Below are positions 6,558-42,617 of a DNA stretch of 43,521 nt, piece after piece. The notes beneath the pieces were generated by a model. That model saw nothing but the letters and a program-made list of their open reading frames with translations. It did no database searches and was not told where the DNA came from. The first letter of the stretch is position 1. The number at the start of each line of letters is the position of its first letter. Position numbers and translations under genes: made by a program. The DNA comes from a virus, in IMG/VR virus record IMGVR_UViG_3300045988_124583, positions 1 through 43,521 of that record. One strand, given 5' to 3'.

Positions 6558-6565
6558 CGTATGTA

Positions 6566-6784: not shown

Positions 6785-6801
6785 ACAACATCACCTTCCT
6801 T

Positions 6802-10183: not shown

Positions 10184-10192
10184 AAATATCCC

Positions 10193-24373: not shown

Positions 24374-27300
24374 TTAGTGCCAAGGTGCATCGCTGATCGT
24401 GCTTTTCGCATAATCACATACGTAATACAAAGCGTCTTTTTGCTTCTTAGAAAGGTCAAGAGAATCGATATACTCAAGCACCTTTTCCTTTGCAGAAACA
24501 ATGACCTTGCCGCGTTCGTCCTTGTCAGACTTTGCGCTGCCCTTGAATTTCCATACGTCGTGGGCAATGTCAACGTCAATGCCCTTCGGCTCGCAATACT
24601 CGTTGTAAGCCGTTACGAACGAATAAGACACGCTTTCTCCGTCAAGGCTCGGGTGATCCTTGATAAAAGAATGCACGCTGACCTTCTCGGTCGCTTCCTC
24701 CTTGGTCATACCGCCGTAGCGCATATACATTTCGATAGCGCGGCTGGCCGTAATGTTGCCCGCAATAACCTCGTCGCCAATATCGTTGTACTCAATACCG
24801 GTCACGACGTAGGAGCTCCATTTGTTGACCGCTTTCGTGATATCCTCGCTGCTCTTGTCGGTGTACTTGGTAAGCATATCCGTTGCCTGCTGCTTGGAGA
24901 TCTCGCCGCCTCTGTACCACTCGCCAATCTTGCTCGTGATCTGCTCGGTCACTTGCTTTTCGGTATAGCCGTGGGATACAAGCTCGTTCATGGCTTCGTC
25001 AATGCTCGCACCGTTTCTGACTGCATCGTATACCTTGTCATAGCGGGAATATCCTTCGCCCGCTTCCCAACCCTGCATGGTGAAGTACGCCTCGTCCTCG
25101 TTGTCAACAAGCCCTTGTGCAAGCAGCTCCGCGATTGCTTCGTCAAACGTCAGATAGCCGTCCGCATACGCATACTTGATCTCGTTATAGTCGCCGGGAT
25201 CGTAGGATTTCACCTTAAGGCTCGGTGCCATTGCTCCGATGGTATTGTTCCAAATAGCAATAACCTCTCGCGTTGCCGCAGCCATAGGAAGCCCGACAAT
25301 GCCGGAAGCCGCCTGAAACAGCTTATAAATGCCGCCGTACCACGTGTAGTTGGTGTCCTCGCCCGCGATCTTCTGATAAATGATCTGCGTACCGTTGACG
25401 AGGCTATCCCACCATTGCATATATACGGACTGCGGAGGATTGCCGTAGGTGTCAACGCCGATAATGGAAAGCAGCTCTTTTGCAAGGTCGTAGAAGTCGG
25501 CCATGATCGGAAGCTTATTGATCGGCATGAGCTCGTCAATCGTGTTGCCGCCGAATGCTTCAAGCCATTTTTCAATGAACGTTTCGTATTCATCGTCGTC
25601 ACGCCAAGCGTCAGCAACAGCCTGAACCGCCGCCAACATCACGGCTGTCAAGCCGTATACGTACAGGGTGCGACTAATCATGTGCTTGTTCTTTTCCCAT
25701 GCCTGCTGCTTGCTCATACCGCGCTTCATGTCAGCGTTGTACTTATCAACAGCGTCAATCAGCATACTCGCGGTTGTCGTAGGCTCGCTCATAAACGAAC
25801 CGGTAAGACGCGCCACAACGCCCTTGCTACGCAAATACTGATTCTTGGTCAGCACGCTGTCAACGACCTGCGTCTTGTAGATCACGTCCTCAAAGAGCTT
25901 TGTAACCGCCTCGTAGAAGCCTGCATCACCGGGACGAAGCTTCTGCTTCTTGATCACTTCCTCTTTGCTTGCGCTCCACATAGCCGCCCAAGTAAGTGTG
26001 TCTGCCTGTTCTGCGCCCCACATACCCCATTCACCAACAGTTTGCTTCCAATCGGTGTTGTGCTTGATCGTCTCTGTCAGTCCTCGGGAAATGTTCACGT
26101 CATAGAAACCAAGAGATTTCCACGCGGCAATACCGCTGTGCTTCTGCATTTCCTCAATATTCTGCTTGATCGCTGCGGGCTTTAACTTCATGCCTCTCAT
26201 GATAGATCCGTAGTCTATCAAAAGAGCTGCACGAGAGATCGCCAAAGGCTGCTGCACGATCACGCGGAAATTGAATGCGACCTGTGCCATATTGTAGCGA
26301 CGGAGTGCGTTCATGCCAAACGTGTCTGTAGGAACGCCCTGCGCCTCTGTGCCGTTAAAGGCTTTGAGAATGCCCAGCACAAAATCCTCTGCATAGCCAC
26401 GTTTACCCGCGCCCGGTCGTGTTTCCTCGGTTACGCCATACACTCTTGCCATCTGCTCACGAACGCTGTCCTTCAAGTATCTGTTGCCCTCGCCGTCCTC
26501 GGTTTTCTGCTGATAGTTGAACCACTTGATCGCATCAAGAACGGGGAGAGCCATAGCGTTATACTGCGCCATACTCGCCATGTGATTTGCAAATACGTCG
26601 AAAATGCTGTAAACGATAATACGGTTATTTGCTTTTTCGTTACGGGACTTTGTAAAGCTCATATTGAGAAGTGCGTACAAGCTCGCCGCGCTCGGGTGTT
26701 CGTCTGCCGTTGCCTGCAAGTGTCTGCCGTCGGAGTTGATCGGGAAGTAGTGCTCGTTGGTAAACAGTTCCTCGCCAAAGCGTCTGACCGAAACCTCGTT
26801 GCCCCATGCGCCGCCTTGCTCTTGCATAAACTTCTGCATAGCGTCGGCAACCTCTTTCTGTCTATCAGTCAATGCGTTTACAATGATGGCTACGTCGCCC
26901 TCGTTCAGCGCGTGACCGTTATCGGAGATCTTCTTGCCGTTTGCTGCGGTATAGGTTGCTACGCGCATACCCTCGCCAAGCATGTGTCGCAAAGAGTCGG
27001 GCTGCTTGGAAAGCTCGTAAAGGGACATCATATCGGAAACGCGCATCTTAACTATGCCAGAGCTGATCCTGATATCCTTGGTTTCCTTTTCCCAAGCGTT
27101 GACCTCTTTCGTCGAATAAGTCTTTTCCGCAAACTCAACGATCTTTTGCGTATTGAAAGCAAGCCGTGCTTGACCGCGACGCAAGCCGTCGTAGATAGCC
27201 ACGCCACCTCTGCCGAAACGCTCAAAGGCGTATGCCGGGCGAATCTGCTGCCAAAATACAAAGTCGGTAGCTGCGTTCGATTTGCCGTTGTCGCTTCTCA

Positions 27301-30300
27301 ACTGAGAAAGCTCAAAGATCGTGTTGTCGCCTGCCTCGTAAACGTGCTGATACATAGCGTTTGCATGGAATTTGTTGATCTGCGTGATGTACGCTTTGAG
27401 AGTGCGTACAACACCGGAAAGCTGCTTCAGTTCCTCGCTCGTCATTCTGTTAATGACAAACTCACCGCTGTTTTGCTTGACGAGTACGTTCACCGCGTCA
27501 ATGAAATTCTGCAAGTCTGTCATAAAGCTCGGAGGGAGATCGGTATAGCCGGAATACAAGCCGTCCACGGTGATTTGCTCCTTGAGCGCACCGTTCAGAC
27601 CGTTCAGCCTCTTCACCAATTCCGCATCAGCTTTAGTCGCCTCACCGCCTCGGAGCTGCTGCTTACTCATGAAGTCGATAGAGTTAAGGAAAGGAATAAC
27701 GGAATTTTTCAGCACGTCGGGAATATGCTTCACAACGTCCTTATTGTTGGGCTTCATGACCCACGAGATCAGCTCGTTCACGTCAGTTGCGATACGCTCG
27801 CGGTACTTCTTGATAGCAGCCGCGTTCCTTGTGCGGTCGCGGTAGCGTTTCAGAATCTCCGCGTCGTGCGATCTCTGCTCGGTTTCAACGACCTTGCGCG
27901 CCTTTTTCAGCAAGCTCTCAAGCACCTTTTTGTCCTCAAGAGAGAGAACGTCGGCTTTTGCTTTATTGATCTGATCGTCAAGAACGTGCATACGGTTCAA
28001 GGTCTGCTTTGCCGCCTCGCGGTCAACCTTTGCGCCAAACTGCTGCTCCTTGTAAAGTCTGCCTTGCTCTGCTCGGTCGTCCTGCAAGCCTTCAAGCCTT
28101 GAAAGGCGGCTTTGGAAGATCTGCAAAGCGTCGCGCTCTGCATCGGTAAGATTGGTTGCCATAAGCTCGACAGCAGCCATTGCCAAAACCTCGCGGTCGC
28201 CCAGCGTGGTAGTGCGCTGCTGATAACTGATATCCGCGTCGGCGGTAGGCTGCTTATTGGAAGTGAGCTTGACTTGCTCCGCTGCCTTGATGATAACCAC
28301 GTCGCCGATCTCTTGGTGTGCGCCCACTCTTGCGTTGCGTACGATCACGCCGTCGTAATCGGCGTTATTCAGTCCGTCAGCAATGCTCGGATAGAGATTG
28401 CCGCCCGCAAGCGTTTTTCGATTAGCGTTGATCTCGTAAGGCTTGGTCACGTTGGCATATACTGCGTAGGTGCGGTTATTCGCACGGTTAACGATCTCTC
28501 CGGACTCACCCACGGGAATTCTCGCCTTAAAGGTGAAATCTTCAAGAGATACGCCGTCCTCTTCAAGAAGTCTGTTGCTTGCCTCTCTCAAACCGTCAAT
28601 CAGTTCTTCCTTGGTATAGTCCTCGTCCCTTGCGGCGTTGTTGCTGTCATAAGCGTCCCACGCGCGGAGAACGTCAGATACGGTGAACCTTTCGGGATTT
28701 TCGAACAGTTCGCCAAGCGTAGCCTCTCTTGAATGCTCCCACTCATAGCGGCCGTAGGCTTTCTGAATGCGCTTTCTTTCAGCGGAGTACTGCACTTCTT
28801 CAAGGCGGTCGTATTCGTCCCAGTCGCGGTTTTCGTTTGCCGCTTTAAGTTGTTTGCTGATTTCCGCATCGGTCAAATAACCCTCGGCACCGGGATTGTC
28901 CTTCTTGAACCTTTCAAGATCCTCTGCGCTGTCAAACCTCATATCGTCGTTAAGATAGAAGTTGCCACCGGTCGCCGTCTGAATATCGTCGGTTTCGTTA
29001 GGATCAAACAGCTTATGCTGATAATTTCCGGCATAAGAGTCTGCGTCCTTTTGGCTTGTAGTAAACCAATTACCGCCAAGCTTGCCACGGCTCGGCTCAA
29101 AAACGGTAAATCCTGCGTTTGCAGTACCGTGATACAGTACGAGAAGGTTTCCGTTCTTATCTCTTGCCTTGGAATCCTTGAAATAATCCGATTGAGCTGC
29201 CGTCAGCGCGTTACCGCTTGCGTCTTGCTCGCCGATATACGCGCGGCTCTGCTCCTGTACTGTGTCCTCGTCCACGCTGTCAAGGGACTGTTCCTCTTTA
29301 GGATTCAATATCTCCATAACCTCGTTATACCTCGCTCTCTTTTGGTCAAGCTCTGTCTGCTTTGCAAAAGGTGCTGCAATCAGCTTTTCCTGCTCTGCAA
29401 TATCCGTTTGCAACTCTGCAAGGTTATGTTGCCACAATTTCACCTTTTCGTCAATACTTTCGACAACGCCGATCAGATGATTGATCATATAGGCATGGTT
29501 TCCGGGATACGTTTTGAACGGATAGCCTTGCTTACCCACAAGCAAGCCGCCGATACCCTCGCTCGTTCTGATCACGCGAAGTTCAAAGCCTGCAAAGCTT
29601 CCCACCTTGGTATATCCGTCGGGGTTTGCCTTTGCCGCCGCTTCTGCCATAAGAGCAACGCCTGCTTCCTTCTTGTCGGCATACTTCTTGTTGCCAACGG
29701 TAATGGAGAATTTGCCCTCCGAATAGGTGTCAACGGTTGCAAGCATATCACTTTCGCCGTTTGCAATCTGCTTTTCAAGCGAAGCGATCTGACCACTATC
29801 ACGCAACAAACGCTCCTTTGCGGAACGAACCGCAGAAACGTGCGCTCTGTAAAGGCTTTCGAGCTTCTTAATATCGGTGTCAAGCTGTACCTGCTCCATG
29901 ATCAGCGGGCTGCCCGACGCAAGTGCCTTAACCTCGGCAGCGGAGAGAGTAACCTCGCCCGTGTCCTCGGCATCGCGTCCTACGCTGTCGCCATTCATGA
30001 TCTGATTGATGAAATTCTGCTTTCTTTCGAGAATATCCCAAAGACGCGCATCAAAGCTGCCCTCGGTAACGTAGGTGTATTTGGAAACTTCATCGTTGAT
30101 GTTGCCTTGTCTGAATGCGCGGCCGTCTCTCTGTTCCACGTCGCCCGGTCTCCAAGGTGCATCAAGGTGATGGATAGCAACGATACGCTTCTGCGCGTTC
30201 ATACCTACACCCATTTTGCCGGTAGAGCCGATAAGCACTCTTACCTTGCCGTCGTTCACGTCTGCAAACAGTTTCTTCTTCTTTTGGTCGGTGTCCGCAT

Positions 30301-33300
30301 CGTGAATAAAAGCAATTTCCTGTGCGGGAATGCCGCCCTGACGCAAGCGAGCTTTCAGATCGTCGTAAAGCTGTGCGCTTTCAACGTCCATTTCAAGATC
30401 ATCTGTCTCGGTCGTGTTATCGCTCTTGCCCTTAGGCGTTGCCATATCCAAGAAGATGATCTGTGTTCCCTTGATAGCCTTGCTGTTCTTATATTCTTCA
30501 AGAACGTTATCCGCACAACGGAAGATCTTGCACCCTTCCTCATAAGGCAAGGACGGGTCGATCATGCGCTGCGTATAGGATATCTTTCGTCCGTCCGACG
30601 TGATCTTCAGCATATTATCCACGGAAGGATCAATGTTCTTGATGTTGTCCGCGCGCTGTTCAAGCTCCTTCATAAAGTCCTGTTGGAACTGTCCGGGCTC
30701 GCATACAACCACGTTTACCTTGCCGCCTTTCATTTTCGGGATCTTCAAGCCCGGAATATCGGTCAGCACGTCCGCAAAGTTACGGAACAAGAGTTGAAGC
30801 TCGCTCATGTTCTTGAAGCGTGAAAAGCTCTGCTTTACGCGGTAGCCCTGTCCGCTCGGCTTGATCTCCACGCCGTTCACAACCTCGCCAAACTGCTTAG
30901 CCCACGCATCAAAGGTGGAAAGTCCAAGCTGATTCAAGAGGTCGGGTTGCAGATATTTCTGCATAATGTACATTTCCGACATAGAGTTCATGACGGGCGT
31001 TGCGGTTGCGAATACAATACCGCGTCCACCGTTGAGCTGCTGCAAATAGCGCACCTTGGTATAGAGGTCAAAGGCACGCTTGGAGCCGTCCTTATTGCCA
31101 AGCCCCGCGACGTTGGTCATAGACGTGGTGTAGAACAGGTTCTTGAAGTTGTGCGCCTCGTCCACAAAGAGCGAGTCAACGCCAAGCTGTTCAAAGTCGA
31201 TGTTCCCCTCGTCCTTCGCCTTGTCGGTCAGTTTGTCGATCTTTGTCTGCAAGGATTTGCGCTTCTTTTCAAGGTCCTTAACGGACAATGCCTTGTCGCC
31301 CTTGTCTGCTTTCGCGTCCTCAATAGCGGCAATCACGCTGTCTATCTGCTCCTGATAAAGCTGTCTTGTAAAATCGTCCGACATAGGCAGCTTCTCAAAC
31401 TGTTCGTAAGACACGATCACGGCGTCATACTCGCCGTTTGCAATTCGGTTCATAAAGACCTTGCGGTTAGATGCCGTAAAGTCAGAGGCTTCTGCCACGA
31501 GCAATTTTGCGGTAGGAAAGAAGTCGATAAATTCATTACCCCACTGTGCAACGAGTGATTTCGGAACGGCAAACATAGGCTTCTTGACAAGTCCAAGCTC
31601 CTTGAGCTTCATAGCTGCCGCAGCCATTTCGTAGGTTTTACCCGCACCAACCTTGTGCGCAAGCAGAGTATTACCGCCCGACGAAATAACGCGCTGTACT
31701 GCGTTTCTTTGGTGCGGACGCAGCGGTTTAAGCGCATTCGCGCCGTTTACGGTAAGATTTTCACCGTTGTATTTCGGCGTAACTACGGAATTGAATACCT
31801 CGTTATAAAGTGTAGCAAGCTCCGTGCGTCTTGCCTCGTCACGCCACAACCATTCCTGAAATTCCTTTTGAATGTTCTCGATCTTCTCGTTTGCCGCAGC
31901 GGTCGCGTCCTTATTGATCACGAAAGAGCCGTCGTCAAGCTTGTCCTTGATCACAACGCTCTTGCTGTTCAGCATAGCGTCAAAGAGTTCAAGGAAGGTT
32001 CTGCGGGAAGTGCCCCATTTTTGGGTGTTCGCCGCGTTGGTTTTGAGATAACGGTCCTTCAGCTCTACGGTGAAATTGCCCGTATCGGCGTTTCTCGTGA
32101 TATCAACGGCCTGTCTCCAGTCCGTATTGCGGCTGCCGAGCATATATGCCGCAAAGTCGGAATATACGCTGTTCGGAATCCAAGGAGTACCGGGGTTCAC
32201 GAAAATATCTTGATACCCAACGTCCTCGGGCATAACCGCTTTGAGTGCTTCCACGTTGTGAGCGTAGTCGCCGTCGATAGGCACAAGAGCCTCTGCATCG
32301 CGCAGCTTCGCACGCACGTTGCCCGAAAGGTAAACCTCTGCCGCTTCAAGATCTCCGTTGCGGTTCTTGAAAGCCTTGCGGCTGTCGATCAGTTCTCTCG
32401 TTACGTCCGCTTCGGCAATGCCTGTCAGCTTTGCGATAAGAGCGGTGTCAACGCCGCCCGTTTGGTTGACGGAAACGATAAGTCCCTCCGACACGTCCTT
32501 TGCAGACGTTACGGTGCGGTTGGGAGCAATCGTGTTCTTGGAGAAGATATCAGCCTTGGTCGCCTTTTTGGTTTCGGGATTCCAATTTTCAAGAGCGAAA
32601 AGAGAATAGCGGTCGGGATCTTCGATAAAAGCGTTTCTGTTCGCCTGCGAATTGATAAAGCCGTATTTCTTTACAAAAGCGTCATAAGCCTTGTTGAGTG
32701 CCGTGCGAGCCTTTTTGATCTCGGTTTCATTGAGCCCCTGCTGCTGATAGTTCATCAGATTGCGTGCGAGATCACGGATTTCAAGCATAGCCGAAATACG
32801 TTCTGCCGCGCCCTTGGCTTTGTCTACCTCAACAAGATCGCCGCCCTTGTTCTGATATACCTTTCCGTCCTTGACCACAAGTCCGTTTTCCTTGGTCTTT
32901 TTATTCGCTCTCTCCACGGCAAAGTTGGTTTTCTCACGGCTGAGTGTCGCGGGATATTCCATCTTTCCATTGATATGAGAGAACGCCTCGCGGATTTGAT
33001 CGGCAAGGCTGCCTTTGCCTTCAAGTGCCTTATAGGTCAGAGAACCGCTGCGGTACATACCGCCGTCCATCGTAGGCGTACCAAGTACCATTTCGGGGTG
33101 ATTCTCAAAATAGGTGTTGATATATGCGCCGTTGTAGCTCTCCTTTTCAAGCCTTGTCCACGGTGCTTCAAGGAAGTCCTCACCCGCGTAAGCCGTGTTC
33201 TCTGCTCTCTTTTTGAGAACGAGAATGTCCGTTACAACCTCAGTACCCGCATTTCCCTTGAAAGCGGAATCGGGCAAACGAATTGCTCCGAGCAGATCAG

Positions 33301-36300
33301 CTCTCTGCATAATGTAGCGGCGCACCGTGTTGTCCTTTGCGTTCATCGTGTAAGAGGACGTGATAAACATCACAATACCGCCCGGACGAACCTTGTCAAG
33401 CGACTTGGCAAAGAAGTAGTTGTGAATGGCACTCGTCACCTTTTTGGGGTATTTCTTATCCGTAATGGCGTAGTTACCGAAAGGAACGTTACTGATAATC
33501 ACGTCCATGTAATTATCGGGAATGTTGGCTTTCTCAAAGCCCTGAATGCGCACGTCAGCGTTCGGATAAAGGTATTTTGCTATCAAGCCCGTAATGCCGT
33601 CAAGCTCAACCATAGTCCAACTCTTGACCTTTGCGCTCATTTCTGTAGGCATAGCACCCACAAAGTTACCTACACCGGAGGAAGGTTCAAGCATACGGCC
33701 GCCGTTAAAGCCAAGCTTCGCAAGTCCGTCATACATAGCCTTGATCACGGATATATCGGTATAGTGAGCATTAAGAGTAGAGCCTCTTGCAGATGCGTAT
33801 TCCTCTTCGGTCAGCAGCTCCTTCAGCTCGGTGAATTCCTTTGCCCATTCAGTTTTTCTCTGATCGAAAGCGTTTGCAAGACCGCCCCAACCAACGTACT
33901 TGGAAAGGATCTGCTGCTCTGCCTCGGTCGCATATCTGTTCTCGGCTTCAAGCTGCTTTACAAGCTTGATCGCCTCGATATTCGCCTTATACCTTGCCTT
34001 TTCACCGTTCGGCAGGGAAAGGCTATCCCCGATTACAAAGTTACGCCCCTTGGGCTGCTCGGTGGATTGCTCCGCGATCTGCTCGGTGACTTCCTCGTGA
34101 AGCTTTTCAGCCTCGGGAGTTAGCTCATCATTTCGTCGTAGATCTCCGCTCTGACGATCTCCATCGCCTGATCTACCGCCAGTCCCTGTTCCGTTATCAG
34201 CATCAGCGCCATTTCGTCCAGCCTCTTGTCCTCGCTCGACAGCGTCTCCCACAGAGTCCCCTCGCGGTGCATTTCCTTGTACATCTTCGGCTTGAACTTC
34301 ATCCAGTACTCGTGAATCTCCCTGCCGATCGGCGTCAGACTGCTGTACTGCGCCTCGGTTATCAACATTTTCGACATTCGGTTTTACCTCCTGTTTGGAT
34401 TGCTTTTTATTTGAAAAACTCTTTAATTTGGACGGTTTTGTGTTTGTAACCTCAGTTACGGCTTTCATCGGAAGCAAAAAGCCTACGACGTTGCCCTCGG
34501 CATCAACTGCTTTGAGAATTTTGTAATTCTTCATATAGTCGCCGACGTAAAGCAGATTTCCGTCAAGCCTTGACAAATACTTTTTGTCAAACACAGCCTT
34601 GGTTTTCCCATCAAGATCAAAAACATAAACCGTTTTGTCACCGAGAGTGCCTTCGAGCGGTGCATTGGTCAGCAAAATGTTAGCGTTTTCAAGTGCATCA
34701 GAAACCGGCTTTGGAAGGGCGTTTTCTTCCATGGTGCCCGAAAACTCCAACCTTGCCCAACCGACCATTTCTTCCGTTGCTCTCAAAGCAAAATTGCCAT
34801 CAGAGAGGAACAGCACGCCATTGCTATGCAAAACATATCTGCGTCCTGCGCGCTTCAACCAAGGAGAATACTTCTTCTTGTATTCCTTTTCGCTTTCCTC
34901 GATAGACTTGGTATCGGTCTTAACCTCTGCCACAGGACTTTCTACCGCATCTTTCGGTGCGTTTGCTGCCTTAAACTGCTCGTGAATATCGGACAGCTCC
35001 TTGATATAGGCGTCGAAGTCGTTATATGCATTTGGAATCCAATCGAGATCAAATTTCGAATCCGAAATCTGACCACTTACGGATATGCCGTAAGCAAACG
35101 CATTGGTTTCGTCATACACGTGCATAAATCGTCTGCGTTTGATAGCACGGTCTCGTTCACTATCGGTATCATCAATAGTAACGCCGTCGAGCGTATAGCC
35201 GACATGATCCAACATCATCTGTAAAAGTCTCATTGCTTCTTTGGAGGACATATTCATCATATCGGACGTGCGCTCTACAAACTCCAAATACGGCTTGAAG
35301 TCTTTGCGATGCATAGCGTGCGTTGCCTCGTGAGTGGGGATAGCATTCAGATCATCCGTGTCTATATCCTCGGAAATAAAGACTGCTCCGTCGGGCGTGG
35401 TGACCGCAGGCGATTCTGTTATTCTCCATTCGGCAGCCTTTACGATATGGCACTCTATGCCGTATTCATTCTGAAGAACGTCTTGCGCTTTGAACAAATC
35501 AGAGCCTTGTGCCGGATCGATGTAATTATTGGGGTCTAAAAGCCATTTGTTGTTGCTTAATCCTCTATTTGATCTTTGAACAGATTCTGCTTCTGAAATG
35601 CTTTCTCCCTTTTCTCCCACAGTTTCCGATACTCGGGATCTGTTGCCATCTGTTTCTCGTGTTCCTGCCGCTCTTTTCGCAGCATCTGAACGATCTCCTC
35701 TTGCGTCAATGGCTTCTTGTTCTGCATGGTTAATACCTCCGTCAGTATTGGTTTCAATATCCGTCGCCACCGTCATTTGATAATTCGTAACCGCTTCCAC
35801 GGCGACCTTGTCAAACAGCTTGACGATATTCTCGACGTATTTTACGCTCTCACCGATCTGCTCCTTGAGCGCGTTTGCCTCGCGGGAGCTGTTCGGGTCA
35901 ATGGAAGAGAAGTACGCTTTCAGATCTGCGACAAACTCCTTGAGCTTTTCAAGCAGCTTTTCAAATATGGTTTTGTGATTGTTCGCAAGCTCCTCTACGA
36001 AATTCGCATCGGGCAGAATGTCGGTCATAGCCTCGGCAACCACCTCGCGGCTTGCCTTGTCATAGGTCATGCCCTCATTCTGTGCCATTTTCGTATCAAT
36101 GAGGTCTTCTACGTTCTCTCCACGCTCGGTAAGGGTATCAAATACTACCTTTCTGAACTCATTATACCATATCGGATTCCATTTTTCAATAAAATGGGTA
36201 AATTCGTGCGAAAAAGTGCGCATCATGGTGTATTTTGCAAGATCATCTACGCTCTTGATATCCGCAATACCTGCGTTGATGTCAATGTAGATGGTGTCCT

Positions 36301-39262
36301 CGCTCCACTTGAACCTGCCTTGCGCTCCCTCAAACTGGCCGTCTGCATTTGCCTCGGACTTATACAGCACGATATCAATGCCGGTCGCTTCCGCATAGGT
36401 GGTAAGCAGCTTGTAAGCCTTGCCCTGCGTATCGTTGAAAGTCTTGCGCAGATCCTCGATCTTAACGCCCTCACCCCTTACCGTGCCTTTTCTGCGCCCG
36501 GTCTTGCCGTTTGCCTTGGCTTTGTTCGCCTCTGCCTGTGCTTTGGCGGTATTGGAGGAAGCGTCTGCGCCTGCCGCGTGTGCAAGCTCGCGCTGACTCT
36601 CGGTAAGATATGCGGTCGCGCCGCTGTTCATAGCGTAGGAGAGTGAAACGCCGCTCTTACCCATATTGTAAGCCGCAGAATATGCCGCGTCGTATTTTGC
36701 CACGTCCTGTCCCTCGGTATAGGTGGAGATCATAGCCCCTGCCTGCGCGCCGTATTTCTTCGCCGCGCTCTCCAAGGAAGCGGTGCTTTCGTCCGTGCGA
36801 ACGACCTCGTCAGATGCCTCAAATTTCGCTTTTGCGGGGCTTTCTTTTGCGGTGGCATTCTCGGTCACGCCCTGCACATTATCTGCGGCGGGCTGCGCCT
36901 CTGCTTCCGTGGTGGCTTTGTGACCGACATTTGTGTCGGGCGCAAGCTCTGCGGGCTTTGCCGCCTTTGCCACGCTTGCAGCCTCGGTAGGTGCGTTGGC
37001 GGTTGCCGTTTGCGGGCGTGCTTCCGCTTCAAGGCTTTGCAGCAGCCTGCCGTATTCCTCTGCATTGATTCTGTCCGTGCCGATTTCCTGCGCCCATGTG
37101 GAGAACGGAGATCCTGATTTAATGGTATCAGGATTCAGCTCCCAAGCCACTCTTTCAGCATATTTGCTGGTCTTCAACATCAGCTTATCAGCCGCACTGA
37201 GTGTCTCGCCTGCAACCTGCTTTGCAAGAGCCTTTGCAATGGTCTTTACGTTGCCTTTTTCCCCAAGCGCGGTAAGGCGGCTTTCTGCTGCGCTCTGAAT
37301 AGTAGCCACGTCATTCTCATACATAGCAGCCTCGTTCTGCTGTACGAGCCTGCCGATCTGACTGTTGGAAAGGGATTTGCCGCTTTCAACCCTCGACTGC
37401 ATTCTCTTAGCAAACCTGTTGTTCGGGTCGATCTCCAAGGCTTCTGTTGCAAGAGCCGCACCGAGTTGGCTTTTTGAAAGAGATTGGCTGCTGTCAACAT
37501 TGTTCTGCATTACCTTCGCGAGCTTACTGCTCGGGTCGATCTTCGTACCGTGATACTTTTGCATTTCCGCGCCCTGCATTGCGTTGCCGACGGTATTGAT
37601 CATAGCACCGCCGCTACCCATGATACCACCCGAAATAGCACCACCGAGCACATCAAGCCCGAACTCCTTTAATTTGTCGGCAGCATATTTACCGGCAGCG
37701 GCTCTTTCGTCAAGACCATACTCCTGCATAATGATTTGGATTTCGCGCTTGATTTTGCTTTCGTCTCCGCTAAGTACAAGATCCACAAGATCAACCAAGG
37801 TGTTTCCTACGTTGCTGAGACCTTCTTCAAGACCCTCTGCAAGCAGGTTTTCGAGAATGTATTTTCCTGCGCTGCCTTTAAGAGCCTTAATGTTAAACAA
37901 AGCGTCAATGCCGATTTTCTCGGTTGCCACCTCAATAGCACCTGCGGCAGTTCCGAGCAAAAAGGCTTGATTGTCCGAAAGTCCCAAATCCTTTGTGGCA
38001 ACAACGGTATCGGCTGCCGCACCTGTGCCCATAATGGCAAGGGATACCGCTTGATTGCCGCCGGTTATGGCAGTCGTGAAAAGGAAGTCACCCATGCTCA
38101 TACCGGTTTGGTAGGCAAAGCTGCCAACGCCACCCCAATTTGCTTCTACCGTCTCGGAAACCTCATTGCGGATCGCGCTGTTCATATGCACAAACTTGTT
38201 ATATCCCTCGTTCTGATCGATGCTGCCGTCCTCGGCGTAGTCTGCGAGCTGTCCGATGTAGGAAATACCCTTAAGCGGACTTGTGACAACGCTGAACACA
38301 GAAGTACCAACGGGATCTTCTTTTGCGAGTTCAGCCCACTTTGTTTCTTCTGCTTTTCTCTGTCTGCGGTCAAGATCGTCTGTGATAAGATCGATATACT
38401 CGAATGCCGCGTCTCTTCCTTGCGTAGCGTAAAGGTAATTGAAGATCTTGATTTCATCATCTTCCATTTCCAAACGCTCACCATCGGTATACCCATACAG
38501 AGCAGCACCGGTTTGAATATTCTGCGCAGACTTCATATTTATTGCATCTTGGTTGCGGTTGATGTAGTCATAATCAATATCATCAAAACCGTCTTCGGTG
38601 TACGCTCCCGTAAACCAATTGCGCTTCTCGCCACCGACATAGGTAGATTTGTATTCGCTATTTTCCGCAAAGTCAGATGCCGTAGAAAGGAGGTCGTATC
38701 TATGAGTATTCAGCCATTCCTTTTCTTCGCCGTCATTGAGCTTGCCAAGCGCAGATACGATTTCCTCATAGCTCTTGCCGCTGTATTTGTTCTGATAGTC
38801 GTAATACCTTTTCGCGGTGTAATATTCGTCCTCGCTCGCCCATTGCGACCAATATTCAACGTCCTTGGTAGAGGCGTCCAAAACGCTCTCCTGCGCTTTC
38901 AGGTTGCCGTCAAGAGCCTTGAATACGGAGCTGACGTAATCATCGCCAAAGAAGTCCTTGTACTGCGTCAGCACGCTTTTAATGCTTTCCGCTTCCTTTT
39001 GGAAATTCTCTCTCTGTGTAGTAACGGTGTTCAGCCAATCGGACGCATCGGTTCTGAACTTGGTGTTGTTTGCGTTAAAGCGGTTCTGCGCGTTAGAGAT
39101 ATAGTGATTGTTATTTGTAAGCCACGTGTTCACGCGGTTGGAGATTTCCTTGCCGACTGTTTCTACGTTCTTATACAAATATCGGTTTTCAACGCCGTTA
39201 TAGAGAGTATTCGATTTTTCTTCTTCCTCTCTTTTCTTCTTGTATCTATCTTCTACGCCCAT
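24374..39262 (-). CDS. Giant polyvalent protein (4,962 aa): hydrophobic Gly-rich N-region, two zincin motifs, N6-adenine MTase, SNF2 helicase, ART-like domain, TM/repeat C-region; candidate virion cargo/ejection protein
   Basis: Uninterrupted ORF. GGAGG lies 7 nt upstream of ATG 39262 and a terminator follows the stop. The motifs were read directly and are listed in the sub-features. Confidence 0.85.
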   Translation of the reverse strand: MGVEDRYKKKREEEEKSNTLYNGVENRYLYKNVETVGKEISNRVNTWLTNNNHYISNAQNRFNANNTKFRTDASDWLNTVTTQRENFQKEAESIKSVLTQYKDFFGDDYVSSVFKALDGNLKAQESVLDASTKDVEYWSQWASEDEYYTAKRYYDYQNKYSGKSYEEIVSALGKLNDGEEKEWLNTHRYDLLSTASDFAENSEYKSTYVGGEKRNWFTGAYTEDGFDDIDYDYINRNQDAINMKSAQNIQTGAALYGYTDGERLEMEDDEIKIFNYLYATQGRDAAFEYIDLITDDLDRRQRKAEETKWAELAKEDPVGTSVFSVVTSPLKGISYIGQLADYAEDGSIDQNEGYNKFVHMNSAIRNEVSETVEANWGGVGSFAYQTGMSMGDFLFTTAITGGNQAVSLAIMGTGAAADTVVATKDLGLSDNQAFLLGTAAGAIEVATEKIGIDALFNIKALKGSAGKYILENLLAEGLEEGLSNVGNTLVDLVDLVLSGDESKIKREIQIIMQEYGLDERAAAGKYAADKLKEFGLDVLGGAISGGIMGSGGAMINTVGNAMQGAEMQKYHGTKIDPSSKLAKVMQNNVDSSQSLSKSQLGAALATEALEIDPNNRFAKRMQSRVESGKSLSNSQIGRLVQQNEAAMYENDVATIQSAAESRLTALGEKGNVKTIAKALAKQVAGETLSAADKLMLKTSKYAERVAWELNPDTIKSGSPFSTWAQEIGTDRINAEEYGRLLQSLEAEARPQTATANAPTEAASVAKAAKPAELAPDTNVGHKATTEAEAQPAADNVQGVTENATAKESPAKAKFEASDEVVRTDESTASLESAAKKYGAQAGAMISTYTEGQDVAKYDAAYSAAYNMGKSGVSLSYAMNSGATAYLTESQRELAHAAGADASSNTAKAQAEANKAKANGKTGRRKGTVRGEGVKIEDLRKTFNDTQGKAYKLLTTYAEATGIDIVLYKSEANADGQFEGAQGRFKWSEDTIYIDINAGIADIKSVDDLAKYTMMRTFSHEFTHFIEKWNPIWYNEFRKVVFDTLTERGENVEDLIDTKMAQNEGMTYDKASREVVAEAMTDILPDANFVEELANNHKTIFEKLLEKLKEFVADLKAYFSSIDPNSSREANALKEQIGESVKYVENIVKLFDKVAVEAVTNYQMTVATDIETNTDGGINHAEQEAIDARGDRSDAAKRAAGTRETDGNRSRVSETVGEKGESISEAESVQRSNRGLSNNKWLLDPNNYIDPAQGSDLFKAQDVLQNEYGIECHIVKAAEWRITESPAVTTPDGAVFISEDIDTDDLNAIPTHEATHAMHRKDFKPYLEFVERTSDMMNMSSKEAMRLLQMMLDHVGYTLDGVTIDDTDSERDRAIKRRRFMHVYDETNAFAYGISVSGQISDSKFDLDWIPNAYNDFDAYIKELSDIHEQFKAANAPKDAVESPVAEVKTDTKSIEESEKEYKKKYSPWLKRAGRRYVLHSNGVLFLSDGNFALRATEEMVGWARLEFSGTMEENALPKPVSDALENANILLTNAPLEGTLGDKTVYVFDLDGKTKAVFDKKYLSRLDGNLLYVGDYMKNYKILKAVDAEGNVVGFLLPMKAVTEVTNTKPSKLKSFSNKKQSKQEVKPNVENVDNRGAVQQSDADRQGDSRVLDEVQAEDVQGNAPRGDSVGDAVERGQEAGRNGADADNGTGTGGRSGDGDRQSGDLRRNDELTPEAEKLHEEVTEQIAEQSTEQPKGRNFVIGDSLSLPNGEKARYKANIEAIKLVKQLEAENRYATEAEQQILSKYVGWGGLANAFDQRKTEWAKEFTELKELLTEEEYASARGSTLNAHYTDISVIKAMYDGLAKLGFNGGRMLEPSSGVGNFVGAMPTEMSAKVKSWTMVELDGITGLIAKYLYPNADVRIQGFEKANIPDNYMDVIISNVPFGNYAITDKKYPKKVTSAIHNYFFAKSLDKVRPGGIVMFITSSYTMNAKDNTVRRYIMQRADLLGAIRLPDSAFKGNAGTEVVTDILVLKKRAENTAYAGEDFLEAPWTRLEKESYNGAYINTYFENHPEMVLGTPTMDGGMYRSGSLTYKALEGKGSLADQIREAFSHINGKMEYPATLSREKTNFAVERANKKTKENGLVVKDGKVYQNKGGDLVEVDKAKGAAERISAMLEIRDLARNLMNYQQQGLNETEIKKARTALNKAYDAFVKKYGFINSQANRNAFIEDPDRYSLFALENWNPETKKATKADIFSKNTIAPNRTVTSAKDVSEGLIVSVNQTGGVDTALIAKLTGIAEADVTRELIDSRKAFKNRNGDLEAAEVYLSGNVRAKLRDAEALVPIDGDYAHNVEALKAVMPEDVGYQDIFVNPGTPWIPNSVYSDFAAYMLGSRNTDWRQAVDITRNADTGNFTVELKDRYLKTNAANTQKWGTSRRTFLELFDAMLNSKSVVIKDKLDDGSFVINKDATAAANEKIENIQKEFQEWLWRDEARRTELATLYNEVFNSVVTPKYNGENLTVNGANALKPLRPHQRNAVQRVISSGGNTLLAHKVGAGKTYEMAAAAMKLKELGLVKKPMFAVPKSLVAQWGNEFIDFFPTAKLLVAEASDFTASNRKVFMNRIANGEYDAVIVSYEQFEKLPMSDDFTRQLYQEQIDSVIAAIEDAKADKGDKALSVKDLEKKRKSLQTKIDKLTDKAKDEGNIDFEQLGVDSLFVDEAHNFKNLFYTTSMTNVAGLGNKDGSKRAFDLYTKVRYLQQLNGGRGIVFATATPVMNSMSEMYIMQKYLQPDLLNQLGLSTFDAWAKQFGEVVNGVEIKPSGQGYRVKQSFSRFKNMSELQLLFRNFADVLTDIPGLKIPKMKGGKVNVVVCEPGQFQQDFMKELEQRADNIKNIDPSVDNMLKITSDGRKISYTQRMIDPSLPYEEGCKIFRCADNVLEEYKNSKAIKGTQIIFLDMATPKGKSDNTTETDDLEMDVESAQLYDDLKARLRQGGIPAQEIAFIHDADTDQKKKKLFADVNDGKVRVLIGSTGKMGVGMNAQKRIVAIHHLDAPWRPGDVEQRDGRAFRQGNINDEVSKYTYVTEGSFDARLWDILERKQNFINQIMNGDSVGRDAEDTGEVTLSAAEVKALASGSPLIMEQVQLDTDIKKLESLYRAHVSAVRSAKERLLRDSGQIASLEKQIANGESDMLATVDTYSEGKFSITVGNKKYADKKEAGVALMAEAAAKANPDGYTKVGSFAGFELRVIRTSEGIGGLLVGKQGYPFKTYPGNHAYMINHLIGVVESIDEKVKLWQHNLAELQTDIAEQEKLIAAPFAKQTELDQKRARYNEVMEILNPKEEQSLDSVDEDTVQEQSRAYIGEQDASGNALTAAQSDYFKDSKARDKNGNLLVLYHGTANAGFTVFEPSRGKLGGNWFTTSQKDADSYAGNYQHKLFDPNETDDIQTATGGNFYLNDDMRFDSAEDLERFKKDNPGAEGYLTDAEISKQLKAANENRDWDEYDRLEEVQYSAERKRIQKAYGRYEWEHSREATLGELFENPERFTVSDVLRAWDAYDSNNAARDEDYTKEELIDGLREASNRLLEEDGVSLEDFTFKARIPVGESGEIVNRANNRTYAVYANVTKPYEINANRKTLAGGNLYPSIADGLNNADYDGVIVRNARVGAHQEIGDVVIIKAAEQVKLTSNKQPTADADISYQQRTTTLGDREVLAMAAVELMATNLTDAERDALQIFQSRLSRLEGLQDDRAEQGRLYKEQQFGAKVDREAAKQTLNRMHVLDDQINKAKADVLSLEDKKVLESLLKKARKVVETEQRSHDAEILKRYRDRTRNAAAIKKYRERIATDVNELISWVMKPNNKDVVKHIPDVLKNSVIPFLNSIDFMSKQQLRGGEATKADAELVKRLNGLNGALKEQITVDGLYSGYTDLPPSFMTDLQNFIDAVNVLVKQNSGEFVINRMTSEELKQLSGVVRTLKAYITQINKFHANAMYQHVYEAGDNTIFELSQLRSDNGKSNAATDFVFWQQIRPAYAFERFGRGGVAIYDGLRRGQARLAFNTQKIVEFAEKTYSTKEVNAWEKETKDIRISSGIVKMRVSDMMSLYELSKQPDSLRHMLGEGMRVATYTAANGKKISDNGHALNEGDVAIIVNALTDRQKEVADAMQKFMQEQGGAWGNEVSVRRFGEELFTNEHYFPINSDGRHLQATADEHPSAASLYALLNMSFTKSRNEKANNRIIVYSIFDVFANHMASMAQYNAMALPVLDAIKWFNYQQKTEDGEGNRYLKDSVREQMARVYGVTEETRPGAGKRGYAEDFVLGILKAFNGTEAQGVPTDTFGMNALRRYNMAQVAFNFRVIVQQPLAISRAALLIDYGSIMRGMKLKPAAIKQNIEEMQKHSGIAAWKSLGFYDVNISRGLTETIKHNTDWKQTVGEWGMWGAEQADTLTWAAMWSASKEEVIKKQKLRPGDAGFYEAVTKLFEDVIYKTQVVDSVLTKNQYLRSKGVVARLTGSFMSEPTTTASMLIDAVDKYNADMKRGMSKQQAWEKNKHMISRTLYVYGLTAVMLAAVQAVADAWRDDDEYETFIEKWLEAFGGNTIDELMPINKLPIMADFYDLAKELLSIIGVDTYGNPPQSVYMQWWDSLVNGTQIIYQKIAGEDTNYTWYGGIYKLFQAASGIVGLPMAAATREVIAIWNNTIGAMAPSLKVKSYDPGDYNEIKYAYADGYLTFDEAIAELLAQGLVDNEDEAYFTMQGWEAGEGYSRYDKVYDAVRNGASIDEAMNELVSHGYTEKQVTEQITSKIGEWYRGGEISKQQATDMLTKYTDKSSEDITKAVNKWSSYVVTGIEYNDIGDEVIAGNITASRAIEMYMRYGGMTKEEATEKVSVHSFIKDHPSLDGESVSYSFVTAYNEYCEPKGIDVDIAHDVWKFKGSAKSDKDERGKVIVSAKEKVLEYIDSLDLSKKQKDALYYVCDYAKSTISDAPWH
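24670..25165 (-). other. Giant protein C-terminal tandem helical repeats (about 4 x ~35 aa)
   Basis: Repeat units: GYLTFDEAIAELLAQGLVDNEDEAYFTMQGW, NGASIDEAMNELVSHGYTEKQVTEQITSKIGEWY, GEISKQQATDMLTKYTDKSSEDITKAVNKWS, GNITASRAIEMYMRYGGMTKEEATEKVSVHSF. Confidence 0.6.
28255..29190 (-). other. Giant protein: ART-like (polyvalent-protein ADP-ribosyltransferase-like) domain with a large insert
   Basis: NLLVLYHGTANAGFTVFEPS...GGNWFTTSQKDADSYAG (YHGT at 29123-29134), then after ~170 aa RTYAVYANVTKPYEI...DYDGVIVRNARVGAHQEIGDVVIIKAAEQVKL. Assignment is from memory of the family pattern. Confidence 0.45.
29990..31723 (-). other. Giant protein: SNF2-family helicase domain
   Basis: LRPHQ (31723), GAGKT (31634-31648), DEAH (31151-31162), ATATPVMNS, GSTGKMGVGMNAQ, QRDGRAFRQGN (30101-30133). 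Confidence 0.85.
33200..34050 (-). other. Giant protein: N6-adenine DNA methyltransferase domain
   Basis: Motif I MLEPSSGVGNF (33662-33694) and motif IV NVPFG (33476-33490). It is preceded by the ...ILSKYVGWGGL... lead-in that I associate with methylase-helicase fusion proteins. Confidence 0.8.
34120..34377 (-). CDS. Embedded +1-frame ORF E2 (85 aa), TnpV-like small protein candidate
   Basis: AGGAGG lies 9 nt upstream of ATG 34377. The protein sequence looks globular (MSKMLITEAQYSSLTPIGREIHEYWMKFKPKMYKEMHREGTLWETL...). It lies wholly inside the giant ORF, where the main frame is low-complexity. Confidence 0.55.
   Translation of the reverse strand: MSKMLITEAQYSSLTPIGREIHEYWMKFKPKMYKEMHREGTLWETLSSEDKRLDEMALMLITEQGLAVDQAMEIVRAEIYDEMMS
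35318..35332 (-). other. Giant protein: second HExxH motif (THEATHAMH)
   Basis: In-frame CAC GAG GCA ACG CAC (aa 1311-1315). Confidence 0.6.
35557..35727 (-). CDS. Embedded +1-frame ORF E1 (56 aa)
   Basis: GGAGG lies 8 nt upstream of ATG 35727. Translation is MQNKKPLTQEEIVQMLRKERQEHEKQMATDPEYRKLWEKREKAFQKQNLFKDQIED. It lies inside the giant ORF, where the main frame is low-complexity. Confidence 0.5.
   Translation of the reverse strand: MQNKKPLTQEEIVQMLRKERQEHEKQMATDPEYRKLWEKREKAFQKQNLFKDQIED
35800..36490 (-). other. Giant protein: zincin-like metallopeptidase domain (polyvalent-protein MPTase-like)
   Basis: ...DTIYIDINAGIADIKSVDDLAKYTMMRTFSHEFTHFIEKW... with HEFTH at 36194-36208 (aa 1019-1023). 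Confidence 0.6.
37595..38135 (-). other. Giant protein: Gly/Ala-rich hydrophobic (membrane-active-like) segments
   Basis: WGGVGSFAYQTGMSMGDFLFTTAITGGNQAVSLAIMGTGAAADTVVA...LLGTAAGAIEVA and VLGGAISGGIMGSGGAMINTVGNAMQG. Confidence 0.55.
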
Positions 39263-39278
39263 AATTCAACCTCCGTGA

Positions 39279-40679
39279 TTATTTGATTGCAACGTTCGGA
39301 CCGTATATACCGCCGGGTCTGCCGCCGCTGTTCGAGCCTGTGCCCGTATGGATCGGATTAACCGTCGTATCGTAAACGTCGTTTGCGCTTCCGGTTCTGT
39401 ACTTTTTGTAGTATTCGTCTGCTTGATCCTCGGTAAGTCTGCCCGAAGCCACGCAATCGTCAAGGAATGCAGCAAGCCCGGTGTTGTCCTCATCGTAGTT
39501 ATACGCTTTCATCGTATCAACGATCTCGGCAGAGGACATAGACGACACGTGTTCAAGAGCCGCTTGGTTGTTGCCACTGCCGCCCGAACCGCCCGAAGCC
39601 TTTGCTTCCTCGTAAGCCTTTTTCTCCATTTCCCAAGCCTCTTGTGCGCGTTTATCCGCGTTAATGTTAAGCTGTTGCGTCTGATTCCATTGCGAATCTT
39701 CGACAAACTCACGCTCCAACTGATGCTTCCATTCCTTGTCATAGCGTTCATCATCGACCGCTTCACGATCCAACTGATGCTTCCATTGCTCGTCGTATCT
39801 CGAATCCTCGACCCCTTCACGCTCCAGTTGATGTGCCCACTCGGTGTCATATCTTGTATCTGCAATCGCGTTACGGTAGTCGGTGTAAGCGTAGTTCTTA
39901 TCGTCGGCATAAGCGCCGTAAGCAAAGTTACGATCATCCGCGTACTTGCCGTAAGCAAAGTTGCGCTCGTCGGAATATTTGCCGTAATCGAAGGAACGCT
40001 CGTCCTTGTAATCGCCCTGCAGGTAGTCCCTCTCGGAAGCCCATTGATTGTAGCCGTCAACCCATCTGCCGTAATCTTGGTTCTCTTGCTCGGCAAGCAG
40101 ACCGTACTGGTTATACATTTCCTGCCCCTCTTGGTTGTACTGATCGCGAGCCATGCCGTAAAGCTCGGGAACGACCTCGTTGAGCTGCGAGAGATAAGAC
40201 TGATACGCTTGATTGCCCGCCGACGAAGCGTACGAGCTGCCATAACCGCCCGTCATAGCCGCCGCTTGACCCATGGTGTCCTGCATTGCGAGCTTGCCAA
40301 GCGCGGTATATTGATCCTTATACTGCTGATACAACGCATCGCTATTTACGTCGTAAGAGAATTTCTCACGGTTCAGGATGCGGTCGATCATGCCGTTGAT
40401 CTGTCCCTGCCACGTCGATTGGTATTCACCGGGCTTTGCGGCAAGATGCGACTGAAGCGCGTTGTAAGCCTGCGATACCGTGTCGCTTTGCGCGTAATCG
40501 TTATGCGAAAAGTCGTCGTAGGAGAAGTCCTCGTAAGTAAAGCCCTCGGACGCGGCGGGAGCACTCCCTGCGGACGCGGCAGGGGCTGCGCTGCCGGACG
40601 CGCCGTCCGCGTCAAGGTTAGTGCCCTTTTTGAGCTTTTCCTCGGGATTGTCCTTAAGTTGCTTTTTTGTAACACTCAT
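39279..40679 (-). CDS. Repeat-rich virion-module protein (466 aa), function unknown
   Basis: Ala/Ser-rich N-terminus, a Q/Y-rich middle, 11-aa repeats (DERSFDYGKYS/DERNFAYGKYA/DDRNFAYGAYA/DDKNYAYTDY) and 18-aa repeats (DTRYDTEWAHQLEREGVE/DSRYDEQWKHQLDREAVD/DERYDKEWKHQLEREFVE). Confidence 0.65.
   Translation of the reverse strand: MSVTKKQLKDNPEEKLKKGTNLDADGASGSAAPAASAGSAPAASEGFTYEDFSYDDFSHNDYAQSDTVSQAYNALQSHLAAKPGEYQSTWQGQINGMIDRILNREKFSYDVNSDALYQQYKDQYTALGKLAMQDTMGQAAAMTGGYGSSYASSAGNQAYQSYLSQLNEVVPELYGMARDQYNQEGQEMYNQYGLLAEQENQDYGRWVDGYNQWASERDYLQGDYKDERSFDYGKYSDERNFAYGKYADDRNFAYGAYADDKNYAYTDYRNAIADTRYDTEWAHQLEREGVEDSRYDEQWKHQLDREAVDDERYDKEWKHQLEREFVEDSQWNQTQQLNINADKRAQEAWEMEKKAYEEAKASGGSGGSGNNQAALEHVSSMSSAEIVDTMKAYNYDEDNTGLAAFLDDCVASGRLTEDQADEYYKKYRTGSANDVYDTTVNPIHTGTGSNSGGRPGGIYGPNVAIK
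39690..40012. repeat. In-frame tandem DNA repeats (about 3 x 54 bp and about 4 x 33 bp) within the 466-aa gene
   Basis: Repeated units are visible on the plus strand, e.g. gccgtaagcaaagtt...; they correspond to the peptide repeats above. Confidence 0.7.
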
Positions 40680-42603: not shown

Positions 42604-42617
42604 GATCATTCCTCCCG

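Follow-up and report, generated by a model that had tools for sequence, protein, structure and literature searches.

A TnpV-like small gene nested in the linker of a giant polyvalent phage gene: comparative evidence for a dual-coding segment

Introduction

In phage lambda (Rz/Rz1) and phage phiX174 (B within A, E within D), a complete small gene lies inside a longer gene of the same strand and carries its own ribosome-binding site; lambda Rz1 is read in the +1 frame. Here, we describe a similar arrangement in the IMG/VR virus record IMGVR_UViG_3300045988_124583, a stretch of 43,521 nucleotides (positions 1 to 43,521 of the record) that is further referred to as the window. An 85-codon open reading frame (ORF), embedded gene 1 (positions 34120-34377, minus strand), is located wholly within a 4962-codon giant ORF of the same strand, in the +1 frame relative to the giant frame and just before the LPD36-methylase-SNF2 helicase module of the giant protein. 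As for the Rz/Rz1 type, the nested ORF is complete, lies on the same strand and, on sequence evidence, has its own initiation signal. Based on a comparison with related loci, we propose with a probability of roughly 0.8 that 34120-34377 is a real, conserved dual-coding segment. Unlike in Rz/Rz1, it is the embedded gene that seems to have come first, the segment read in the host frame is a spacer without sequence constraint, and the host gene encodes a polyvalent protein of ~5000 amino acids that seems to carry several unrelated embedded genes.

The LPD36 domain, the adenine methylase-SWI2/SNF2 module and the polyvalent proteins have been described before, without mention of overlapping reading frames (Iyer et al., 2017; PMC5512222). 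The giant protein of the window is a polyvalent protein in the same sense, as it combines many unrelated effector domains, including the LPD36-methylase-SNF2 dyad and a zincin. The gene beside it matches a virion protein. With DarB of phage P1 and other polyvalent proteins it shares the dyad (the LPD36 GxGU motif reads YVGWGG here), the zincin motifs and ART-PolyVal. There is no such small gene upstream of P1 darB. Ulx of P1 was considered as an analogue of the small protein and rejected, since ulx is located downstream of darB and is unrelated (probability 0.1%). In the literature we found no comparable description of a small gene embedded in a giant polyvalent gene.

The protein family closest to the product of embedded gene 1 is TnpV (PF14198) of clostridial transposons of the Tn4451/Tn4453 type. 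Canonical TnpV adjoins serine recombinases on Tn4451-type elements, and an Xis-like role has been postulated for it (PMC3158075). TnpV and the product of embedded gene 1 are both small helical proteins of mobile elements with N- and C-terminal helices that are homologous at the profile level (G.E.H.YW...P.MY...G.L...; ...AEEI..E.IY). Compared to canonical TnpV, however, the protein described here is short (79-96 aa among the members of its group) and is encoded inside a giant phage gene.

Results

Embedded gene 1 and its start signal

Embedded gene 1 runs from an ATG at 34377-34375 to a TAA at 34122-34120, and its 85 sense codons encode MSKMLITEAQYSSLTPIGREIHEYWMKFKPKMYKEMHREGTLWETLSSEDKRLDEMALMLITEQGLAVDQAMEIVRAEIYDEMMS. 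The ATG is preceded by the Shine-Dalgarno (SD) sequence AGGAGG at a distance of 9 nt (spacer TAAAACCGA, 34386-34378, minus strand), and the arrangement AGGAGG-N5-10-ATG occurs a single time in the 14.9-kb giant ORF, namely at this start. Only four of the 85 codons end in T (AGT13, ATT21, ACT41 and GAT69), and none of these precedes any of the 29 codons that begin with AA, AG or GA. A first-pass annotation, made by a model from the letters and a list of ORFs, had singled out the SD site, the +1 ORF and these codon counts; all are present in the sequence, and a recount gave identical figures. In the third frame, 10 stops are found over 34120-34377.

The same annotation had put the naive expectation for an open frame, (61/64)^85, at about 2% (1.7% when recomputed). 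When the same 85-aa protein is re-encoded with the codon usage of the giant gene, the giant frame remains open in 3 of 10,000 trials (3e-4), and the corresponding probability, given protein and codon usage, does not exceed 5e-3 in any of 14 loci. A long +1 ORF alone is unremarkable, as alternative-frame ORFs of 60 aa or more occur 15 times on the coding strand of the giant gene, each time in the +1 frame. Only two of the 15 (34120-34377 and 35557-35727) are SD-led, resemble a protein in sequence and also coincide with a stretch whose giant-frame translation has a very low hydrophobicity (0.12-0.13 vs. 0.24-0.40 for most other +1 ORFs). The other +1 ORFs of the giant gene were dismissed as genes, being SD-less, composed of R/S/T/P-rich junk and placed over normal folded sequence. 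Judging from its SD site, composition and conservation, embedded gene 1 is set apart from them.

Conservation of the overlap in related loci

A protein search for homologues returned 42 clusters with 53-96% identity, 39 of which comprise proteins of 82-85 aa and three of 120-131 aa; gene callers had annotated all 42 as separate genes. DNA of relatives was retrieved from viral contigs, metagenome-assembled genomes of Clostridia and Oscillospirales, metagenomes and individual contigs, giving a comparative set of 42 distinct small-ORF sequences with 30-96% identity. The SD site, the ATG and the stop of the small ORF are kept across the set, with AGGAGG at exactly -15 in 26 of 32 distinct loci. 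The giant frame is free of stops across the small ORF in 41 of the 42 sequences, and the third frame contains 6-15 stops in every one. In 38 of 42 the giant frame runs in frame into the LPD36 motif, the remainder being free-standing copies, a truncated contig or one motif miss. In 39 sequences, the open giant frame reaches 300 codons or more in the upstream direction or runs past the contig end; complete upstream parts measure 1135-1635 codons. The first-pass annotation had associated TnpV-like proteins with methylase-helicase genes on clostridial mobile elements; within the subfamily described here, the module accompanies the small gene in the 38 loci with the LPD36 motif. The same layout is present in deeper clades with about 25-35% identity to the window protein (loci L034-36, L041, L061 and L062; proteins P0099, P0196, P0209, P0075 and P0194). 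The alignment of homologous loci that the first-pass annotation had suggested as a check thus shows the small ORF embedded under an open giant frame. Main-frame stops over the small ORF in relatives, which it had named as a refuting observation, are confined to two loci from which the module is absent (L054 and L059).

Nucleotide homology between the loci begins exactly at the SD site, and the sequence further upstream is not alignable. Identity between loci amounts to 64-95% for the downstream module and to 21-43% for the upstream proteins. The conserved mobile unit therefore appears to consist of the SD site, the small gene and the methylase-helicase.

The locus also comes in several variants. 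A longer small protein of 120-145 aa is encoded in L015/L055 (9941-10378) and L031 (10001-10363) (P0017, P0020, P0040 and P0044); it has a conserved extra C-terminal helix (...ETEQDRR..E.WE.F.E...), and the giant frame is open over the entire longer gene, which brings the overlap to about 440 nt. In a distant clade (L034 at about 8900-9200, L035 at about 4200-4500), ~900 nt of extra giant-frame sequence lie between the embedded gene and LPD36, a stretch that comprises tandem TDDNSIK/TSGNSIK peptide repeats and is interrupted by a run of N in the assemblies. Two loci (L030 at about 9950-11100, L054 at about 5950-7100) harbor a tandem pair of free-standing TnpV-like genes, both preceded by an AGGAGG of their own, in the absence of a giant ORF and a methylase module; over the copies of L030 the giant frame is still open. 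Decayed copies or assembly errors may account for a single in-frame stop inside the helicase region of L047 (about 7968) and for an out-of-frame internal deletion in L022 (about 2100-2400) by which the whole methylase-helicase is gone; L021 has lost the module by a deletion as well. An apparent break of the giant frame in L001 was traced to a run of N.

When the region was compared to phages by blastn, similarity was limited to the methylase part, in unannotated gut phage contigs; viral scans with P0080, P0072 and P0060 returned nothing; and alignment A3, examined for the locus search, contained no conserved stretch.

Selection on the two frames

Selection was estimated over the overlap by the pairwise Nei-Gojobori method, as the ratio of the proportions of nonsynonymous and synonymous differences (pN/pS). 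In the small frame, pN/pS equals 0.07-0.4 for close and moderate pairs, compared to 0.8-4.2 for the giant frame over the same nucleotides; the flanking methylase region, read in the giant frame, shows a normal pattern (0.11-0.33). Site diversity is lowest at the second position of the small-frame codons (0.25), followed by the first (0.32) and third (0.41) positions. The small-frame second position is the wobble position of the giant frame, and the pattern is hence opposite to that of a gene coding in the giant frame only. Because the small-frame pN/pS is low and diversity is lowest at the second position, the amino acid sequence under selection is that of the small protein. With respect to depressed synonymous rates, another check named in the first-pass annotation, synonymous divergence is mostly lower in the overlap than in the flank (e.g., 0.44 vs. 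0.69 and 0.35 vs. 0.77).

We further defined as a risk site each third position of a small-frame codon that precedes an AA, AG or GA codon, as a T at this position makes a giant-frame stop. Only one of 925 risk sites carries a T, compared to 253 of 1403 safe sites (18%) of the same ORFs (Fisher p about 1e-58) and to 26% of the equivalent sites elsewhere in the giant ORFs. The sole T at a risk site belongs to L054, a free-standing copy without giant gene, and L059, a decayed remnant without methylase module, contains a giant-frame stop. These two loci serve as natural controls, with giant-frame stops occurring only where no methylase module follows. Taken from these substitution patterns, selection acts on the amino acid sequence of the small protein and the giant frame is actively kept open, as is characteristic of overlapping genes with both frames maintained by selection. 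The GC-ending codon bias, in which the first-pass annotation had seen a possible sign of foreign origin, is a matter of site-specific avoidance of giant-frame stops, and a foreign origin is not needed to account for it.

The giant-frame linker and the downstream module

Over embedded gene 1, the giant frame encodes amino acids 1629-1714, which are D/G/R/E-rich and contain no F, W, Y, I, M or C; D, E, R, G, S, T, N and Q make up 77% of the residues. The low complexity noticed on first reading is thereby confirmed, and VLDEVQAEDVQGNAPR gives an example of the linker peptide. The segment reads as a disordered linker without sequence constraint, of which only the openness is kept. It is in frame with LPD36, and the LPD36-methylase module has no start of its own because the first giant-frame start codon past the small stop is a GTG at +371 nt, which has no SD site and already lies inside LPD36. 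On this point, too, the first-pass annotation, which had found neither a start codon nor an SD for the module, was borne out.

The small protein and the TnpV family

AlphaFold2, run with a 43-sequence alignment, predicts a compact five-helix model for the small protein (predicted local distance difference test score, pLDDT, 93; predicted template modeling score, pTM, 0.81), in agreement with the earlier impression of a folded helical protein. A HMMER search with the family profile yielded 160 homologue clusters at 50% identity; among the 150 clusters listed, all contain small proteins (48-248 aa) and none a giant protein with the domain in frame. Pfam TnpV is matched by 32 of 74 profile relatives, and some close relatives have a precomputed PF14198 match. 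The window protein itself aligns with positions 16-72 of the 111 positions of the Pfam profile at 20.3 bits (E 5.7e-4), under the gathering cutoff of 27 bits. The profile of 43 family members, in turn, finds P0072, a bona fide TnpV (81 bits in Pfam), at E 1.2e-10, and hhalign aligns P0072 to the family profile with a probability of 98.6% (E 9e-16). The resemblance to TnpV that the first-pass annotation had pointed out thus holds at the level of the superfamily and fails at the Pfam cutoff. We regard the small protein, by its profile matches, as a short member of the TnpV superfamily and not as a member of Pfam TnpV. Its gene is embedded in a giant phage ORF and does not stand free beside a large serine recombinase as in the Tn4451 type. 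A search of PDB sequences with the small protein retrieved designed helical repeats only, and a PHROGs search gave no match.

Further embedded genes in the giant ORFs

Embedded gene 2 encodes a 56-aa product (MQNKKPLTQEEIVQMLRKERQEHEKQMATDPEYRKLWEKREKAFQKQNLFKDQIED) over a second low-complexity linker, which is located between the two HExxH motifs of the giant protein. The SD context of this gene is conserved in relatives as ACGGAGGTATT. When 37 distinct giant ORFs were scanned for ORFs in alternative frames that are led by an SD site and span 40 codons or more, four protein-like embedded families emerged, each of them +1 to the giant frame. The TnpV-like gene constitutes family 1. Family 2, to which embedded gene 2 belongs, comprises proteins of 49-65 aa and is present in at least 12 lineages besides the window. 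Families 3 and 4 occur in relatives only, with an SD site and zero giant-frame stops: family 3 encodes a Cys-rich protein of 76 aa at 83 codons upstream of the TnpV-like gene (L029 5883-6113, L051 5734-5964), and family 4 a protein of 67-68 aa after the helicase, about 1815 codons downstream of the TnpV-like gene (L003 5731-5934, L049 6480-6686).

The avoidance of giant-frame stops recurs in these families. In family 2, T is found at 0 of 210 risk sites vs. 73 of 235 safe sites (p 1.4e-23), and in families 3 and 4 at 0 of 37 and 0 of 25 risk sites, respectively. Read in its own frame, family 2 has a pN/pS of 0.2-0.56, compared to 0.94-4.9 when read in the giant frame. A single-sequence AlphaFold prediction of family 2 gives a helical hairpin (pLDDT 85), which is weak evidence. 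Embedded gene 2 has no Pfam match, and its exact sequence is absent from a collection of 15 billion proteins. From these comparisons, embedded gene 1 represents a design that recurs within the giant genes of this group.

Organization of the window and its annotation

The features of the giant ORF are compiled in Table 1. Its Pfam matches are SNF2-rel_dom, ResIII, Eco57I, Helicase_C and ART-PolyVal. Just upstream of the giant gene, an ORF (40846-42621, minus) matches PHROG 511, an internal virion protein, and the portal and large terminase are assigned by PHROGs to 2554-5983 (minus), which places the head-packaging genes at a distance of about 20 kb. Other products of the window are a DNA methyltransferase distinct from that of the giant gene (14496-15836, minus) and an SbcC-like nuclease or recombinase (11946-13883, minus).

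Table 1. Coordinates of the features of the giant ORF and its embedded genes in the window.
Feature	Position	Strand	Description
Embedded gene 1	34120..34377	-	putative 85-aa short TnpV-superfamily protein, +1 frame of giant ORF; TAA included
Shine-Dalgarno AGGAGG	34387..34392	-	9 nt 5' of embedded gene 1 ATG
Giant ORF	24374..39262	-	4962 aa, polyvalent protein; two HExxH, LPD36-adenine methylase-SNF2 helicase module, ART-PolyVal
Giant-frame linker over embedded gene 1	34121..34378	-	86 codons, giant aa 1629-1714, predicted disordered
LPD36-type helical domain (NFVIGDS...YVGWGG)	33863..34042	-	conserved N-terminal part of DarB-like methylase module
N6-adenine methylase core	33293..33520	-	Pfam Eco57I match; NVPF motif 33479-33490
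SNF2/ResIII helicase core + Helicase_C	30104..31867	-	Pfam; DEAH at 31151-31162
ART-PolyVal ADP-ribosyltransferase domain	28739..29161	-	Pfam match
HEFTH zincin-like motif	36194..36208	-	motif, giant aa 1019-1023
HEATH zincin-like motif	35318..35332	-	motif, giant aa 1311-1315
Embedded gene 2	35557..35727	-	56 aa, '...ATDPEYRK...'; +1 frame, linker giant aa about 1179-1235
Shine-Dalgarno GGAGG of embedded gene 2	35736..35740	-	8 nt 5' of ATG

At these loci, gene callers annotate the small gene, shorten the giant gene to a version that begins at an internal start, and fill the orphaned upstream part with antisense 'genes'; spurious genes on the opposite strand are found in L002 (1-537), L004 (2-217), L034 (6200-7828) and L040 (1-366). 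The splits of the giant gene in database annotations arise because the callers disallow nested genes. Opposite the giant gene of the window, the plus strand contains antisense ORFs at 31655-34123, 28733-30823, 24377-26185, 37736-39286 and 26582-28102 (822, 696, 602, 516 and 506 aa, respectively). Such very long antisense ORFs exist because the sense codons TTA, CTA and TCA are rare (22 of 4963, mean spacing of 226 codons).

Discussion

Based on the comparison of related loci, we propose the following organization for the segment at 34120-34377. The giant gene would be read straight through 34378-34121 as a disordered, sequence-unconstrained spacer, which connects the N-terminal HExxH (zincin) part with the LPD36-methylase-SNF2 helicase module of the DarB-like type. 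Other ribosomes, recruited to the same mRNA at the internal AGGAGG, would start at ATG 34377 in the +1 frame and produce the 85-aa protein with its predicted five helices. The first of the two options put forward in the first-pass annotation, dual coding by an internally initiated small protein and a flexible linker, is in this way supported by the comparative evidence. The second option, a recent fusion in which an intervening gene was converted into a linker, is not supported in that wording, as the arrangement is old (shared by clades with ~30% identity) and the small gene is under purifying selection.

The frame that is used follows from the structure of the genetic code. Stops arise in the giant frame only from small-frame codons that end in T, and since each NNT codon can be exchanged for its synonym NNC, keeping the giant frame open leaves the small protein unaltered. 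Threading in the -1 frame thus costs the small protein nothing, which explains why each embedded gene detected is +1 to the giant frame. In the other frame, an ATG followed by A, for example, forces a TGA.

With regard to history, the small gene would represent the older frame. A cassette of SD site, small gene and methylase-helicase would have become joined in frame to domains upstream, with the small gene being read through in its -1 frame. When relative synonymous codon usage is compared to that of the rest of the giant genes, the correlation is positive for the small frame (+0.32) and negative for the linker frame (-0.26). Moreover, the small frame belongs to a broad family whose relatives include free-standing transposon genes, and the linker frame has no conservation of its own. 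An older small gene with later fusion of the cassette is probably the most economical history.

The reverse order, de novo overprinting, would imply that the linker came first, that the small ORF was born inside it and that it became free-standing later, with the likeness to TnpV being convergent or TnpV itself descending from the small ORF. Some observations are compatible with this scenario: the free-standing copies of L030 keep an open giant frame, which shows that the small gene does get copied out of its giant host gene, all members of the short subfamily with readable DNA are embedded or the remnant of an embedded copy, and the Pfam match of the window protein stays under the threshold. 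Nevertheless, the family profile matches a bona fide TnpV (98.6%), 32 of 74 profile relatives match Pfam TnpV and canonical TnpV is widespread on transposons without any giant gene (PMC3158075). Together with the genome-like codon usage of the small frame and the lack of amino acid conservation in the linker frame, this makes de novo overprinting improbable, though it is the least improbable of the alternatives considered. We give still less credit to the idea that the giant ORF yields three separate products rather than one polypeptide, its open frame being incidental or serving translational coupling. Gene callers indeed split the loci into a small gene and a truncated downstream gene, and the upstream and downstream parts differ in evolutionary history. 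The split calls, however, are explained by the ban on nested same-strand genes; ribosomes from the stop-free upstream frame must read on, no SD-led start codon precedes the conserved LPD36, and the avoidance of stops is site-specific, near absolute (1/925) and relaxed only in loci without the module.

That the small ORF is untranslated and its conservation reflects constraints on the giant protein or the RNA is very hard to reconcile with the data, even if the giant gene is rich in long +1 ORFs (15 of at least 60 aa). Such constraints predict the opposite of the observed substitution pattern, in which the small frame is under purifying selection and the giant-frame pN/pS is about 1 or more. 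Furthermore, a perfect SD at fixed spacing and a start and stop conserved across 42 sequences, intact free-standing copies with their own SD, the TnpV homology and the pLDDT of 93 all speak against it. Just as implausible is a programmed -1 frameshift from the small ORF into the giant frame, which would provide the methylase-helicase with a TnpV-like N-terminus and a start. Database protein P0080 (149 aa) does read from the small frame into the LPD36 frame, yet this protein is known from one contig of 1 kb only and differs from its 95-aa relatives by a deletion of 74 nt, and an in-frame fusion of the small frame to LPD36 was ruled out on these grounds. In addition, an X XXY YYZ slippery heptamer is present in the small frame of none of the 42 small ORFs, and frameshifting does not require a giant frame that is open for 1135-1635 codons upstream.

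Several points weigh against the dual-coding interpretation or narrow it. Both the initiation at 34377 and the read-through of the giant frame are inferred from sequence evolution, and all sequences are metagenomic assemblies; neither the small protein nor a distant relative had a tblastn match among GenBank phages or PLSDB plasmids. The giant frame is broken further downstream in a few loci (L047, L021 and L022). Gut phage MT835532 (GenBank) has the same DarB-like module and no embedded ORF; DarB-like modules without embedded ORF thus exist, and therefore the small gene is not essential to the module. Conversely, the small gene can exist without the module (L030 and L054). As to the nature of the small protein, its Pfam score is below the cutoff and it lacks the central TEELKA...WVG...MN segment of the ~110-aa canonical TnpV. 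In Foldseek searches of its model, the best matches in PDB (E 1.4) and BFVD (E 0.38) were not significant, and the function is therefore not readable from the fold. The small protein might be a partner of the adjacent methylase-helicase module, for instance an assembly, packaging or control factor; we put this forward with low confidence, on the basis of their inheritance as one cassette only.

Dual coding at embedded gene 1 may also be part of a wider phenomenon, which we regard as a tentative idea with the odds somewhat against it. Giant polyvalent phage proteins may thread their reading frame through small accessory genes, which are kept both as linkers and as separate +1 proteins. Neighbors within a cassette may have been fused into one injected polyprotein, with the intervening small genes read in their -1 frame as disordered linkers, and each linker may still encode a +1 small protein that works with the adjacent effector domain. 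If true, the four unrelated embedded families would be instances of this organization, and many split or truncated giant genes in metagenome annotations would be artefacts of it.

In summary, the modeled organization of this locus bears on the annotation, the evolution and the function of polyvalent phage genes. As gene callers disallow nested genes, the polyvalent proteins of gut phages would be systematically mis-annotated. Few long same-strand overlaps in large DNA phages are known to be backed by selection in both frames; here, such support extends down to ~30% identity. The direction of overprinting is unusual, given that an existing gene for a folded protein has apparently been reused as a linker without being lost, and the structure of the genetic code offers a simple reason for the frame used. 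Single-base mutations that affect one frame only make the link between the small protein and the module testable. In silico (minus-strand bases), 34376 T>C combined with 34367 T>C removes both ATGs of the small ORF and is silent in the giant frame, 34373 C>A converts the small-frame TCG to TAG and is likewise silent in the giant frame, and 34357 C>T creates a giant-frame TGA and is silent in the small protein. The apparent tie of an uncharacterized TnpV-like family to a DarB-type anti-restriction module would provide a lead on its function.

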